IMG/VR virus record: IMGVR_UViG_2574180019_000006
Direction: 5' to 3' (one strand)
Length of the DNA: 64,000 nt
Source of the DNA: a virus
Taxonomy: Duplodnaviria; Heunggongvirae; Uroviricota; Caudoviricetes
Made by a program: the position numbers and the translations under genes. Shown one piece after another: positions 2,347 through 43,871 of the stretch. The notes under the pieces were generated by a model, which saw nothing but the letters and a program-made list of their open reading frames with translations, was not told the origin of the DNA and searched no databases. Within the stretch, counting starts at the first letter, position 1; every line of letters starts with the position of its first letter.

Positions 2347-3234
2347 ATGAATCTGTGGCAAATGCTTTTGGCCCGTCGTGGTCTGATGGATGTCGCTGAA
2401 GCGCATGAGCGTGGAGGCGCTGGCGGTGTAGCTGCTGATAATGAGCAGAGCACACAAGATCCTGACAAACAGGGTGAACAAAAAGAGCAGCCGAAGGGCG
2501 ATGACGAATACGCTGGCATGACTCAGGAAGAGTTACTGGCCGAACTTCGTAAAACCAAGAAAGCTGGTGCTGAACTGCTGAAGGAGAACATGAAGCGCAA
2601 AGAGAAAGAGCGCACATTGGCCGATCAGCTTGCTCAGTACGGTGATATCGACCCGGCGCGTGCTCGCCAGCTTTTAGAAGCTGAACAGGCCGCAGAAAAT
2701 GCACGTCGTGAGGCGGAGCAAGCTGAACTGGAGCGTCGTGGTGAGTTCGATGCTGTTAAAAAACAGATGATCGAAGCACACCAGGCAGAGCTGGCACAGC
2801 GTGACGAACGTTATACAGCACTGGAAAGTGAAAACGCATCACTGAAATCTCAATTAGTCGAGATGACCGTGGGCGCTTCCTTCAGTAACTCTCTCTTCCT
2901 ACGTGACAAAGTTCTGATGACCCCGGCAAAAGCCCGCGTGATCTACGGTTCTCATTTTGAAGTGGGTGAAGACGGTAGCGTAGTGGGTTATGACAAACCG
3001 GCAGGTCATAAAGAACGAGCTGTTCTGGTTGACGGTGAAGGTAAGCCGTTGCCGTTTGAATCCGCGATTGAACGCATTGTGCGGGCAGATCCGGAAGCTG
3101 ACGCATTGATGCGTAGCGAAGCCAAGCAGGGTGTAGGCTCACATTCCAAATCGACCTACACAATATCCCAACCGAAGAACAAGTCGACTATGGATAAGTT
3201 GGCCTCCGGTCTGGGGAAAATTGGACTTAAGTAA
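2347..3234 (+). CDS. Head scaffolding protein (putative)
   Basis: 295 aa, highly charged and predicted coiled coil (E/A/R/Q-rich), between portal and capsid genes; AAAGGA RBS. Confidence 0.45.
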   Translation: MNLWQMLLARRGLMDVAEAHERGGAGGVAADNEQSTQDPDKQGEQKEQPKGDDEYAGMTQEELLAELRKTKKAGAELLKENMKRKEKERTLADQLAQYGDIDPARARQLLEAEQAAENARREAEQAELERRGEFDAVKKQMIEAHQAELAQRDERYTALESENASLKSQLVEMTVGASFSNSLFLRDKVLMTPAKARVIYGSHFEVGEDGSVVGYDKPAGHKERAVLVDGEGKPLPFESAIERIVRADPEADALMRSEAKQGVGSHSKSTYTISQPKNKSTMDKLASGLGKIGLK

Positions 3235-3259
3235 CATCTAAATCAAAGGGAATTGATAG

Positions 3260-4135
3260 ATGCCATTACTGCGTGAAGAAGCTGAAAAGCTGTCTAACAA
3301 CGAACTCGAACAGGGTGTGATCGAAACCATCATTGATCGCGATGACCTGTTTGCCATCCTGCCTTTTATGAAAATTAATTCAAAGGCATATCTGTACAAC
3401 CGTGAAAAAACGCTGAGCGAAGCTACTTTCATTGATGTGAACGACACCATCACCGAAGGTGCAGCAACCTTCGAAGAGAAAGTTGCGAAGCTGCGCATTC
3501 TGGCTGGCGACGTTGACGTCGACAAATTCCTGGCTACCACTATGGCTGATACCAACAACCAGCTGGCTATCCAGGTTCGTCAGAAAGTCAAAGGTCTGGC
3601 TCGTGCCTTCCGTCGCAATCTGATTGTTGGCGACTCCACCACTAACAACAAAGCCTTCGACGGCATTCCACGCCTGATGCACGCAGATCAGAAGATCGAC
3701 ATTGCAGGTGCATCTATGACTTTCTCCATGTTCGACGAACTGGTCGATGCGGTGAAAGATCTTGGTGCTGACTGCATCATGATGCGTTCTGAGCATCTTC
3801 GCGCATATCGTGCGCTGCTGCGAACTGTAAACGTAGGCCCGTCCGAAATCATGATGGAAAACTTCGGTCGACCAATGCTGTGCCATAACGGCGTTCCGTT
3901 TATCGTAAACGACTTCATTCCGACCGATGCTGGCAAAGCAAGCATCTACTGCCTGCATCTGTCAGAAGAGAACGGCGTTACTGGTCTGTATGGCGGCGAC
4001 AACGCAGGTATCGTTGTTGAAAACATTGGTACTGTACAGAACAAAGATGCAGTACGTACCCGTGTGAAGTGGTACTGCTCTCTGGCGAATAAGCACGATA
4101 AGGCTATCGCTGCACTGACCAATGTAAAAATTTAA
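3260..4135 (+). CDS. Major capsid protein (putative)
   Basis: 291-aa ORF in canonical position after scaffold, followed by a strong rho-independent terminator as expected for a highly expressed capsid gene. Confidence 0.55.
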   Translation: MPLLREEAEKLSNNELEQGVIETIIDRDDLFAILPFMKINSKAYLYNREKTLSEATFIDVNDTITEGAATFEEKVAKLRILAGDVDVDKFLATTMADTNNQLAIQVRQKVKGLARAFRRNLIVGDSTTNNKAFDGIPRLMHADQKIDIAGASMTFSMFDELVDAVKDLGADCIMMRSEHLRAYRALLRTVNVGPSEIMMENFGRPMLCHNGVPFIVNDFIPTDAGKASIYCLHLSEENGVTGLYGGDNAGIVVENIGTVQNKDAVRTRVKWYCSLANKHDKAIAALTNVKI

Positions 4136-41465: not shown

Positions 41466-42241
41466 AAACATATTGATAAGTATTTACTTACTTATCTTTT
41501 GTGTATAAGATGACTTTGTTTTCGTTGAGACGCGACTGTTTGAACTTAAATACAAGTGCAAACGAAGAAGTCTATCTGGCAGTAGCCTAATAAGCCAAAC
41601 ACCAGCGAGGTCAGTTTCCAGCCTCGTTACCGAAATGGGACACACTGAGCGAGTGTGATTGCAGAACGCAGGAGGGAACATGAATGTTCCCTCCGATGAA
41701 GTAACAGAATGGGCGGTTGGTATATTTTCAACTCCATATGACTCCCGGATTCTTAGCCACTGACCGCCCATCCTGTTACGTCATTTTGTTCAATTATGTC
41801 GTTTATACTGGGTTAAAAAGCGGCGACGTAGCCCGGCTGGTATGGTTAGCCAGCACACAACGTTGAGGCCATTACATTTTTATCAATTCTAAGGTTCTAT
41901 TCACAGAGATACCGGCGAGCGTTGATATGTAACATGTTGGGCAAACATTCAATCGGAGTAGTGGCCTCAACGTTGTGAAGACAGGATTGTTGTGTAGGTT
42001 TAACCACTGTTGCCATTGGTGCCTGTTTTCACAACAAATGATTCCATACATCACATTGTATAAATTACAAAGTAGGTGCTGTCCTCAGAAACATCATCTA
42101 CTTAAAGATTTAGCCTTCTATTGAGCGAAGTCGAAAACGTCTGGCACTAACGAAAAGTGCAAGTAGCGGTGCGTTTCCTGGCAGAAACTAACACCGCCGC
42201 GATTGGCACTGTTGAGTAATAAATACTGTCAGTGCTGAATT

Positions 42242-42316
42242 GATGGTGTAGCTCAGCGGTAGAGCAGTTGGCTGTTAACCAACTGGTCGGTGGTTCGAAT
42301 CCACCCACCATCGCCA
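42242..42316 (+). tRNA. tRNA-Asn (anticodon GTT)
   Basis: Complete cloverleaf folded by hand: 7-bp acceptor GATGGTG/CACCATC, D-stem GCTC/GAGC, anticodon stem GTTGG/CCAAC with loop CTGTTAA, T-arm GGTGG-TTCGAAT-CCACC, encoded CCA. Confidence 0.85.
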
Positions 42317-42318
42317 AT

Positions 42319-42394
42319 GCCGGTTTAGCTCAGTTGGTAGAGCGCCTGCCTTGTAAGCAGGATGTCAGCGGTTCGATCCCGTTAACCGGCACCA
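42319..42394 (+). tRNA. tRNA-Thr (anticodon TGT)
   Basis: Cloverleaf: acceptor GCCGGTT/AACCGGC, D-arm GCTC-AGTTGGTA-GAGC, anticodon stem CCTGC/GCAGG with loop CTTGTAA, T-loop TTCGATC, encoded CCA; 2 nt after tRNA-Asn. Confidence 0.85.
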
Positions 42395-42714
42395 ACACAA
42401 CAGGTAAGAGCATTGGGCGAATCGGCGATACTGACCCACAAGGCCGTAAATCGATAGAGTCAGACCAGTGCTCTTACCGTTGTGAGGAAGTGCAGCTCTT
42501 TGAAGCAACCAGAAGATAAGCATCTGGCTTCACAACACAACGATAAGATCATTACGGTTAATCGTCGTTCATGTGCACAATGACTGGTCGAAAGGTAGTG
42601 ATCTTACCGTTGTGATGAATGCACAGGCTGATGTGCCGCAACTACAGTAGTGCGCGCTTTGCGGGGCTTGCTACAACCCTGTGTCGGAGTTCAGCACCGA
42701 CCATCACAATAGCT

Positions 42715-42801
42715 GGAGAGTAGGGAGCATGGTGCTCAAGCGGTCTTGAAAACCGTCCCATTGCGCAAGCGATGATGGTTCGATTCCATTACTCTCCGCC
42801 A
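42715..42801 (+). tRNA. Probable type II tRNA-Ser (anticodon TGA) with long variable arm
   Basis: Acceptor GGAGAGT/ACTCTCC, anticodon stem GCGGT/ACCGT with loop CTTGAAA, long variable region, T-loop TTCGATT, encoded CCA; D-arm is atypical so the call is tentative. Confidence 0.45.
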
Positions 42802-42956
42802 GACACAGCGTTGAGCGGTTTGGCCTTTTAATCAACTCGATTAAGACTCCGCTAACATAAACCAGACCGCTCAACGCTGTGATAGACAATTACGGCAGAC
42901 GTTCTTAACCATAGCTTGCTAACATCCTAGCAACACTTTTTTCAGCGCAAAATCCA

Positions 42957-42978
42957 AAGGGGCTTCGGCCCCTTTTTT
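42957..42978 (+). terminator. Rho-independent terminator closing the tRNA island
   Basis: GGGGC-ttcg-GCCCC followed by TTTTTT; lies 3 bp from the stop of the convergent minus-strand gene. Confidence 0.7.
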
Positions 42979-42980
42979 GG

Positions 42981-43871
42981 TTACTGATTATCTAGGTATG
43001 CTGTTAACTCATTTTTAATGATCAGTGAATATTCTAAAATCTCACCTAGTAAATACTCTGCTTTTTTAAAATGCCACCCCATAGAGCCTAATTTTTCTGA
43101 AGGTCTTTCTAACAACATTATAATATCGCTGTCTTGCTCTTTGGCAATGTATTGTCTTATTTCTCTCTCCCAATTATTTCTTGTCTTTCCACTTATTGAT
43201 GATTCATCCAAAACTTTGTTTATAAACTTTTCCGTGTCGGCGAACTTTCCTGCATTATGCACAATTGTATGTCTTAGCAACTCAATTAGAGTGATCTCGA
43301 AACGATAGTTTTTACCTATCTTGTTATTTATTTCTACGTCTCTGAAATTGGGTAATTTTCTTCTAAATACTTTCAGGAATGTTTTTAGTGATTTATTTTT
43401 TATCGCCTCGTAATAGGTTTCCATAGCTCCATTTTTATCAATCTGAACCTTTGGAAATTCACTAGGTGACCAAAAATGGTAATGTATGCTCACTGTATGG
43501 GCATATATTTTCTTAATATAATCTTCAAACAATTCAAAAGCTTCAGTTATAACCCATTGATATTGTTTGTTTTTTAACGCTTCGCATAATTTTATCTTCT
43601 CTGAGATATCTATTGTGCTATGCCCAATTCCAAATGTTGAACCTGTATATGGATTTGAGCATGTATGGTTTGTTAACGTTGTCCCGCATGTTATTGGGGG
43701 GGTATTATTAGCATCTAGAGTTTGTGCGTTTTCAAGTGTATGCTTAAATCGCTTTATGTTGTCTTTCGTTGTAACATTTATATGACCTAACAAGTCACAA
43801 CGCAAAATTATTTCGTTTCTTAATTCAGTGAATATGTTTTCAACAAAAGAACCTAGCGGGTTTTCAATCAT
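42981..43871 (-). CDS. Low-GC orphan protein, HEPN-like (possible abortive-infection/defence protein)
   Basis: 296-aa minus-strand ORF, markedly AT-rich versus neighbours; contains an Rx4H motif (LLRHTIVHNAG) of the kind found in HEPN/Abi-type RNases. Family assignment is tentative. Confidence 0.4.
   Translation of the reverse strand: MIENPLGSFVENIFTELRNEIILRCDLLGHINVTTKDNIKRFKHTLENAQTLDANNTPPITCGTTLTNHTCSNPYTGSTFGIGHSTIDISEKIKLCEALKNKQYQWVITEAFELFEDYIKKIYAHTVSIHYHFWSPSEFPKVQIDKNGAMETYYEAIKNKSLKTFLKVFRRKLPNFRDVEINNKIGKNYRFEITLIELLRHTIVHNAGKFADTEKFINKVLDESSISGKTRNNWEREIRQYIAKEQDSDIIMLLERPSEKLGSMGWHFKKAEYLLGEILEYSLIIKNELTAYLDNQ

Follow-up and report, generated by a model that had tools for sequence, protein, structure and literature searches.

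The stretch of DNA analysed here, a 64,000-nucleotide window from the virus record IMGVR_UViG_2574180019_000006 of IMG/VR, belongs to an SSU5/pHCM2-type phage-plasmid of Escherichia coli and contains an RNA island of about 1.5 kb that we read, with a probability of roughly 0.55, as one plus-strand operon of non-coding RNAs. Such an operon would encode an RNA derived from transfer-messenger RNA (tmRNA, or SsrA), three transfer RNAs (tRNAs) and a family of long hairpins, here called R1, that would punctuate the precursor. The segment 41483-42975 looks like a single non-coding unit of the plus strand running from a promoter-like site to a terminator, because all of its elements lie on one strand between these two signals and only short open reading frames (ORFs; ≤95 amino acids) overlap it; this agrees with an earlier note on this DNA, which described the region as free of protein-coding genes. 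That note missed the tmRNA-like 5' third of the island, its most unusual content.

This 5' third (41518-41660) looks like a tmRNA-derived module that is apparently undescribed. It holds a start-less frame of ten codons, ANEEVYLAVA in the window and ANDDLMMVAA in P1, to be compared with the SsrA tag of E. coli, ANDENYALAA followed by two stops. The 233 copies of the frame that were gathered comprise 43 nucleotide variants and 22 peptide variants, and the 22 peptides fit the pattern A-N-[DE]-[DEN]-x-[YFMV]-[LM]-[AVMIQ]-[AV]-A-stop, the stop being often doubled. The last tag codon is GCN, with all four bases seen, codon 8 occurs as GCA, GCT, GCC and GCG, and the Cba120 copy (GCT AAT GAT AAC ACG TTC) differs from the other ANDNTF copy by four synonymous changes only. 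Exactly ten codons and a stop are kept in 78 of 79 loci that were picked independently of the frame, by a 23-mer outside it; the only broken frame among the 79, in an SSU5-type relative (L068), has lost its first stop and reads ANENQYLAVAL-stop. Upstream of the frame, an A is found at -4 in 8 of 8 contexts and a U at -5 in 7 of 8. These are the positions of A86 and U85 of tmRNA, which set the frame on that molecule, A86 being essential (PMC2481249). The pattern of substitutions and the upstream context indicate that the frame is derived from tmRNA and is under constraint at the level of the peptide. A conventional small ORF, which in the window could begin at an in-frame ATG at 41510 and would give 26 amino acids, was rejected because relatives carry in-frame stops, four to seven codons upstream, and most of them have no start codon between these stops and the frame. 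ARAGORN reports the tag frame when its thresholds are lowered to 70-80% and not at default. Elsewhere in the island, the segment 42131-42142 (GUCGAAAACGUC) holds CGAAAAC, a 7-nt word that recurs in the tag template of E. coli tmRNA and is complementary to the 5' block of the module itself, and a repeat that links 41547-41561 to 42148-42162 with 80% identity hints at a decayed second copy of the module.

Downstream of the frame the module is predicted to fold into two H-type pseudoknots. In our alignment of relatives (A4) the first of them shows changes on both sides in 4 of 4 pairs of stem 2 and in 3 of 6 pairs of stem 1. Helix 3 of the same alignment, which in the window is the hairpin at 41641-41660 and in relatives is stem A of the second pseudoknot, is 97% paired with two pairs changed on both sides; the second stem of that knot is weak in the window. 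Over the module's pseudoknots as a whole, 65 cells are changed on both sides against 20.9 expected, a value reached by none of 500 shuffles. No equivalent of pseudoknot 1 of tmRNA was identified in the module, both knots lying 3' of the frame. A tRNA-like domain (TLD), with an acceptor stem bearing G3.U70, a T-arm and a 3' CCA, was found neither in the 64-kb window nor in the remaining 45.7 kb of plasmid pLAO7, whose island is 98.8% identical to that of the window, and G3.U70 is absent from all three tRNAs of the island on direct reading of the sequence. The domains proposed by ARAGORN at thresholds of 70-80% were discarded as mutually inconsistent, some of them being borrowed from real tRNAs, and odd adjacent 'tRNAs' in two loci (L165 and L204) are not conserved. 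Models of two-piece (permuted) tmRNAs gave weak matches only (17-24 bits against gathering scores of 47-84), with no acceptor piece found; blastn between the host ssrA and the module, run both ways, matched short words at most, and the module escapes Rfam at gathering score. With three defining features of tmRNA but no tRNA-like domain, the module is not properly classed as a tmRNA. In two relatives, the N4-like phage EC1-UPM (L113, ~2900-3330) and Cba120 (L112, ~2250-2900), the module is surrounded by large non-coding regions with several units that combine a T-arm, an acceptor strand of 7 nt and CCA/ACA; ARAGORN does not call these as tRNAs, and they may represent minimal tRNA-like RNAs.

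The 5' end of the module has a different relation to tmRNA. In most lineages its first ~37 nt are the reverse complement of nucleotides 68-106 of E. coli tmRNA, a segment that runs from the 3' strand of pseudoknot 1 through the A-run and the resume codon into tag codons 2-6. Aligned to the antisense of this segment, the arms of eight lineages score 29-44, values that none of 300 shuffles reaches; one of them reads UAGUUUUCGUC-AGAGUUG-GCGAC-UUUGCGGGUUUUUA, the exact antisense being UAGUUUUCGUC-GUUU-GCGAC-UAUUUUUUGCGGCUUUUUA. Canonical promoters set the start of transcription 0-5 nt ahead of the arm in three lineages. In 39 of 43 modules pairing of the arm is better with host tmRNA than with the sense part of the module itself (mean scores 30.9 versus 14.8), so that the phage template would escape its own arm. 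The constancy of the core GUUUUCGU is not independent evidence, because the searches that collected most modules required it. This result for an extended arm replaced a simpler reading, a seed of 8-11 nt directed against tag codons 3-6, whose match to E. coli is reached by only 2 of 20,000 shuffles but which shows no co-variation with the tags of Salmonella and Yersinia. A candidate of interest for the question of co-variation between the arm and nucleotides 68-106 of the host is Pantoea alvi, with GUUUUCAUC.

Such an arm raises the question of whether the module is a mere antisense inhibitor or sponge, aimed at the host tmRNA or at a tmRNA-binding factor, with the frame an untranslated leftover. 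The clear antisense character of the arm in most lineages and the lack of any available tRNA-like domain are what this account would expect, and there is a precedent for phage interference with trans-translation in the TLD-only sequence of DS6A (PMC4131195). It leaves unaccounted for an intact frame with a codon-like pattern of substitution, a fixed length of ten codons and an Ala-rich, hydrophobic end, as well as the retention of the A at -4; moreover, the SSU5 lineage keeps frame and pseudoknots despite a decayed arm. We thus regard the pure inhibitor as unlikely, and take the module to be an RNA in which an antisense arm and a tag template may both matter.

The rest of the island carries long inverted repeats, four of which (E1-E4) are, to judge from their shared stem, one paralogous family, R1. 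The pattern CACARC-N50-80-GYTGTGA has five matches against 0.31 expected, all of them within the island, and the copies of the window share a 20-bp basal stem, CACARC...GYTGTG. An alignment of 24 distinct members gives a 20-pair basal stem, YRYARC(A)GNURAG...CUYAMCGYUGYG, usually followed by a 3' tail near RUGAAUGC and closed by a hypervariable apical insert of 10-80 nt that differs between paralogues; one member of 48 nt is nearly without insert. In these 24 members 96.2% of the stem cells are paired and both sides have changed in 12 of the 20 pairs, and the covariation score of 0.517 compares with 0.187 in shuffles, none of 500 of which reaches it, and with 0.07-0.12 when the partners are slid. 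A covariance model built on the family finds four copies in the window and none outside the island, at 55.8-74.5 bits on the plus strand versus 34-38 bits on the minus strand. The stems hold 36 G.U pairs against 5 A.C, so that the selected form would be the RNA of the plus strand. Folding z-scores of the long hairpins lie between -4.8 and -9.7, with no equally stable sequence among 200 shuffles. Covariation and the strand bias of the wobble pairs together indicate that the R1 hairpins fold as RNA.

The family has no match in Rfam, and none of the hairpins matches the Rfam models of self-cleaving ribozymes, Y RNA or C4; retron, anti-CRISPR and hammerhead identities were discarded from inspection of the sequence only. 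A covarying plus-strand RNA family absent from Rfam agrees with the suggestion of the earlier note that novel structured or small RNAs reside here, and the structural covariation across relatives that it had proposed to look for is strong. Its description of the repeats needed several corrections. The supposedly perfect 24-nt palindrome at 41672..41695 is a real hairpin that begins one position earlier and has a 2-nt GA centre; the two 16-bp perfect repeats are real and related, but lie 1 nt off and have 20-nt arms that are 95% complementary; and the two paralogous elements, also real, start 10-15 nt earlier than described and have stems of 20-21 bp instead of ~14 bp. The note had likewise overlooked that the long hairpins form one family, that there is a fifth long hairpin (41695-41785), and that the island is shared with P1-type and lambdoid phages.

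It had also proposed that the hairpins are degenerate tRNAs, and this idea, which can be widened to tRNA-like decoys (relics, or mimics occupying tRNA-binding enzymes or anticodon nucleases), fares badly. The hairpins are of tRNA-like size and sit inside a tRNA cluster, apical motifs resembling a T-loop occur in some relatives (GGGTTCGAATCCC in P1, GGCGGTTCGACTCCGC in a lambdoid prophage, and GGGTTCATATCCC), and small hairpins with a 5-bp stem and a 7-nt loop precede some copies. In the window, however, neither ARAGORN at default nor Rfam down to E = 10 finds a tRNA in them; the part that is conserved and covaries is a 20-bp stem and not a cloverleaf, the apical parts are not conserved between paralogues, no copy of the window has a T-loop, and a 3' CCA is lacking. 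Both the relic and the decoy are in our view very improbable.

A similarly small chance is left to the proposal that the hairpins act as DNA, as recombination sites of the attC type or of the type of miniature inverted-repeat transposable elements (MITEs), shuffling tRNA cassettes between phages. R1 does resemble the attC sites of integrons: its inverted repeats are imperfect and 60-125 nt long, their AAC...GTT ends are conserved, a covarying stem encloses a variable centre, and a copy follows each 'cassette'. The island is modular (Cyrano lacks exactly E2 and E3, and in L012 tRNA-Thr and E3 meet at the CACAAC motif), tRNA sets vary between relatives, the island is common to unrelated phage types, and a tyrosine integrase lies 1.6 kb downstream. 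Unlike those of attC, the ends of R1 are not invariant and covary, with a compensatory AGC/GCT in the E4 type, wobble pairs are confined to the transcribed strand (G.T, 36 versus 5), and copies are also located away from cassette boundaries. Gain and loss of tRNAs occurs without hairpins too, as with the tRNA-Tyr inserted between Asn and Thr, the P1-type phages have the hairpins without that integrase nearby, and no target-site duplications were seen. IntI was not identified near the island, where the sole recombinase matches the generic phage-integrase family, and the P1 locus has no such integrase. The covarying ends and the strand bias speak against the hairpins being attC sites or MITEs.

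If the hairpins act as RNA, their stems might still be scaffolds like those of primary microRNAs, from which the variable inserts are cut as functional small RNAs. The stems, of at least 20 bp, are conserved, whereas each paralogue has a different insert of 10-80 nt, and the E1 orthologues, in which the stem is kept with three pairs changed on both sides, retain insert motifs including ACATGTTGGG and AATCGG. The inserts are nevertheless far less constrained than the stems, the Klebsiella E1 insert being ~20 nt shorter; no consensus inner structure is predicted for the E1 insert across orthologues, the 48-nt member is almost devoid of insert, and there are no known targets. A scaffold role is therefore quite unlikely, and we return to R1 as a punctuation signal.

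The position of the hairpins makes such a processing role plausible. E2 begins 1 nt past the CCA of tRNA-Thr and E4 2 nt past that of tRNA-Ser. A tRNA lies no more than 400 nt upstream of 84 R1-like hairpins; 55 of these begin at -2, +1 or +2 relative to its CCA end, and none begins 3-5 nt from it. In lambdoid and N4-like relatives the 3' arm of R1 ends 1-5 nt ahead of the tmRNA-like module. Punctuation is proposed because stems of 20-22 bp thus stand directly after the CCA ends of tRNAs and, in relatives, directly before the tmRNA-like RNA. Ribonuclease (RNase) III would be the first candidate for the nuclease since the stems reach at least 20 bp, and RNase P the second since the cut would fall right after the CCA.

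These features can be assembled into a tentative course of events. Transcription would start at a repressor-type promoter near 41518 and end at the terminator at 42956-42975, yielding the island as one precursor RNA. Endonucleolytic cuts at the R1 stems would then release mature tRNAs and the module RNA, so that the products would comprise a tmRNA-derived RNA of ~150 nt (start-less frame, upstream A, two pseudoknots, no tRNA-like domain), the three tRNAs, and, as the punctuation itself, four clear R1 hairpins with one or two divergent ones, whose variable apical inserts may be passengers or additional small RNAs. The 5' arm of the module would descend from an antisense copy of tmRNA nucleotides 68-106. 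In relatives with an intact arm the most likely action of the RNA would be to anneal to host tmRNA and mask its tag template; a weaker interaction is expected in the window because the arm is partly decayed. The RNA may also offer a template of its own, and it can be speculated that the ribosome then uses the phage frame.

It is tempting to carry this speculation further, to a swap of templates. The arm would anneal across the host resume codon and the first tag codons, silencing the host template, and the ribosome would resume on the phage-encoded frame, which resists the arm. The same annealing would tether the phage RNA to the alanyl-tRNA-like domain of the host and to SmpB, giving a hybrid two-piece tmRNA in trans that places a phage-chosen tag on rescued proteins, with R1 releasing the RNAs. 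We hold this extension to be rather doubtful.

Several points weigh against the interpretation of the island as a punctuated operon with a tmRNA-directed RNA. The entire case is built from sequence. Taken by itself the arm of the window is not significantly antisense: only GUUUUCG, GCGAC and a U-run survive of its decayed sequence, 42 of 300 shuffles reach its score of 18, and its longest duplex with E. coli tmRNA has 10 bp (nine Watson-Crick pairs and one G.U, with a Watson-Crick run of 8). The 8-nt core does not co-vary with host tags, as judged from the tmRNAs of three host species: the Salmonella tag, ANDETYALAA, has one mismatch to the core and the Yersinia tag, ANDSQYESAALAA, shows little pairing, and the module is unchanged in pHCM2 and pFra despite these differences. 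No ribosome entry route is evident for a template that lacks a tRNA-like domain. A large share of the module sample stems from patterns in which portions of the tag frame were fixed, as in two of the three scans by which module-bearing loci were gathered. As to R1, the majority of such hairpins in the loci, 169 of 253, are not preceded by a tRNA at 400 nt or less, and the conserved base and RUGAAUGC tail of the family suggest a specific recognition beyond that of generic double-stranded RNA.

Table 1. Features of the RNA island, in positions of the 64-kb window.
Feature	Position	Strand	Basis and remarks
Operator-like palindrome, GATAAGTA-N6-TACTTATC	41475..41496	.	Direct sequence reading; overlaps -35 region
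Promoter-like site	41483..41511	+	-35 TTTACT 41483-41488; 17-nt spacer; -10 TAAGAT 41506-41511
Module 5' arm	41518..41541	+	Blocks GUUUUCGUUG 41518-41527, GCGAC 41532-41536, UGUUU 41537-41541
Start-less 10-codon tag frame	41558..41593	+	GCA AAC GAA GAA GTC TAT CTG GCA GTA GCC TAA TAA = ANEEVYLAVA-stop-stop
H-type pseudoknot (predicted)	41605..41640	+	Stem 1 GCGAGG/CCUCGU; loop UCCA pairs with downstream UGGG
Hairpin CACACU/AGUGUG, then GAUU	41641..41660	+	Stem A of the second pseudoknot seen in relatives
Short hairpin	41671..41694	+	11-bp arms; 2-nt centre (GA); folding z -5.6
Long hairpin E0	41695..41785	+	22-27-bp arms; folding z -6.0
R1 hairpin E1	41856..41977	+	122 nt, 82-nt apical insert; 68.3 bits (+) vs 37.2 (-)
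Weaker hairpin, GUUGUGAAGACAGG/CCUGUUUUCACAAC	41972..42035	+	5' arm is the 3' arm of E1
tRNA-Asn (GUU)	42242..42316	+	ARAGORN; Rfam 75.5 bits
tRNA-Thr (UGU)	42319..42394	+	ARAGORN; Rfam 73.1 bits
R1 hairpin E2	42396..42496	+	Stem 42396-42484, conserved tail AGGAAGUGCAGC; 74.5 bits (+) vs 37.8 (-)
R1 hairpin E3	42536..42626	+	Stem 42536-42614, tail AUGAAUGCACAG; 65.7 bits (+) vs 37.5 (-)
tRNA-Ser (UGA), atypical	42715..42801	+	ARAGORN; Rfam tRNA-Sec model only, 44.6 bits vs threshold 47
R1 hairpin E4	42804..42881	+	Ends CACAGC/GCUGUG; 55.8 bits (+) vs 34.5 (-); z -9.7
Intrinsic terminator-like hairpin and T-run	42956..42975	+	End of the unit

The signals assigned to the ends of the unit are listed in Table 1. 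The promoter-like site has 8 of 12 consensus matches in our own scan and scored below the threshold of a consensus tool; its -10 box ends 6 nt ahead of GTTTTCGT (41518), an arrangement that is identical in all SSU5-type relatives, and relatives of the Felix O1 type carry TTGACA-17-TATAGT at the same distance from the module. The palindrome that overlaps the -35 region is likewise kept in SSU5-type relatives and could be a repressor operator for this site. Of the hairpins outside the clear R1 set, the short one that follows the module is kept in SSU5-type relatives with other sequences, for example AUAGGGCAUG/CAUGCCCUAU and GGUAGGGCAUCUGG/CCAGUGCCCUUACC. E0 is undetected by the R1 covariance model at E ≤ 1, and it is by the similarity of its arms that we take it to be a possible divergent relative of the family, a kinship for which the arms are the only ground because the model misses it. 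The hairpin that shares an arm with E1 has z = -3.05, with 2 of 200 shuffles equally stable, and is of uncertain significance.

ARAGORN and Rfam both confirmed the tRNA-Asn and tRNA-Thr recognised in the earlier note. Its probable tRNA-Ser is called as Ser(UGA) by ARAGORN, and in Rfam it is missed by the tRNA model and reached by the tRNA-Sec model only, below threshold; it has a 9-bp acceptor stem and a 6-bp D stem, and in the record of phage D6 tRNAscan-SE was unable to assign an amino acid to this atypical tRNA. Both the tRNA content and the number of hairpins differ among relatives. The tRNA set is modular (L010-L012, L014, L015, L020 and L021): many relatives have a tRNA-Tyr between Asn and Thr, with spacers of 4-5 nt, and in one P1-like plasmid Arg(UCU) replaces Asn.

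Upstream of the island lie an ATP-dependent DNA ligase gene and then four small ORFs, and downstream an ORF of 296 amino acids on the other strand, a glutaredoxin gene and the tyrosine integrase gene; no functional link of the ligase, glutaredoxin, integrase or 296-amino-acid ORF to the island was found. The 3' flank is a hot spot for cargo. In the window the slot is occupied by the 296-amino-acid ORF (42981-43871, minus strand), which has no Pfam or PADLOC match; in relatives (L008, L009, L017, L005 and L010) it holds AbiH in those from Klebsiella, caf1R and the F1 capsule operon in pFra of Y. pestis, and PhoH, Gp49, IS3 or an integrase in further ones. The rest of pLAO7 (L236) encodes metG (methionyl-tRNA synthetase), homologues of TciA and DUF3927, which are present in the ban operon of P1 too, and a type I restriction-modification system.

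Both RNA families reach well beyond the SSU5 type. R1 also occurs in P1, P7, D6, HK620 (50.5 bits) and the N4-like EC1-UPM (40.7 bits), and the segment with tRNA-Asn, tRNA-Thr and hairpin has copies of ~86-88% identity in the C1-controlled ban operon of P1, P7 and D6. In P1 (L001, 1629-2198) the annotated ORFs plp and upl run opposite to the trnT strand over R1 hairpins, and nothing is annotated at that position in P7 and D6, which suggests that the two ORFs are artefacts over RNA hairpins and not genes. In P1, P7 and D6 (L001-L003) the stretch between the last R1 hairpin and tciA/terB, close to the latter, matches the STnc100 small RNA below threshold (33-43 bits against a gathering score of 47). 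The module is present in hundreds of enterobacterial phage records. A 401-nt query of the HK620 type, which contains the module together with two R1-type hairpins, found matches in 718 phage records; what matches in Felixounavirus, Kuttervirus and N4-like phages is the module itself. P1, SSU5 types, Klebsiella phages and HK620, where the locus lies in the interval from pR' to the holin gene, are among these records, and those listed either leave the matched region unannotated or call it a hypothetical protein. A full-text literature search found no description of the R1 family or of the module.

Bacteria rescue ribosomes mainly by trans-translation, a system on which several phages are known to depend. 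An RNA that is half anti-tmRNA and half tmRNA template, has no tRNA-like domain and is conserved across phages would be new, and the module spans P1, HK620, Felix O1-like, Kuttervirus, N4-like and SSU5-type elements. If our reading is correct, viruses would take over or re-tag ribosome rescue, and may interfere with or rewrite the tag of stalled proteins; it would also question the assumption that a tag template must be joined, covalently or structurally, to a tRNA-like domain of its own. Independently of function, the island adds two RNA families that have no Rfam match and are unannotated in the phage and phage-plasmid records examined, including the well-studied P1.

Structured RNAs that are not tRNAs and yet are tied to the tRNA machinery are exemplified by species 1 and 2 of the T4 tRNA cluster and by the C4 antisense RNA of P1, which is processed by RNase P. 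The Rfam C4 family has no match in the island at E ≤ 10, and the only match to YrlA (RF02553), at 23.8 bits against a gathering score of 69, lies over two real tRNAs and not over the hairpins. R1 can be compared with the processing stems that RNase III cuts in ribosomal RNA operons, in T7 early RNA and at the 3' end of DicF. Like these, R1 is double-stranded over at least 20 bp and flanks functional RNAs in what would be a polycistronic precursor, and its 20-pair stems, 96% paired in the 24 members, have the two helical turns or so (at least 20 bp, mostly Watson-Crick) expected of a substrate of the enzyme. Unlike them, it has large variable apical inserts as well as a conserved base, CACARC/GYUGUG, and a conserved tail, RUGAAUGC, a sequence conservation that RNase III would not lead one to expect.

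The module, for its part, recalls the trans-acting antisense small RNAs of enterobacteria and their phages that carry their seed at the 5' end, DicF being an example. A sigma-70 promoter of relatives sets the start 0-5 nt before the antisense block, and in P1 a 'dicF-like region' lies just upstream in the same operon. The module departs from such RNAs in that its target would be a stable non-coding RNA, tmRNA, and not an mRNA, in that the complementarity is long (~35 nt in blocks), and in that the same RNA bears a sense copy of the target's template. With tmRNA it shares a start-less frame of ten codons beginning with GCA AAC GA., a tag with a hydrophobic, Ala-rich, degron-like end and one or more stops, a region ahead of the frame that is rich in A and keeps the A at -4 and the U at -5, and H-type pseudoknots after the frame. 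It differs from tmRNA in having no acceptor stem, T-arm or CCA, in its two pseudoknots only and its length of ~150 nt, and in a 5' end that is antisense to tmRNA itself. An exhaustive survey of RefSeq viruses and plasmids reported ssrA from mycobacteriophages only, and named Bacillus phage G and DS6A in addition, outside its RefSeq set (PMC4131195). Hudson et al. (PMC4131195) describe the mycobacteriophage DS6A as carrying a TLD-only sequence, note that a similar molecule strongly inhibits tmRNA, and suggest such an inhibition for molecules like the DS6A piece. Like the phage tmRNA genes and the DS6A piece, the module would be a phage-borne derivative of tmRNA; whereas the former retain the TLD and DS6A has little else, the module is the mirror image, a template and pseudoknots without the TLD.

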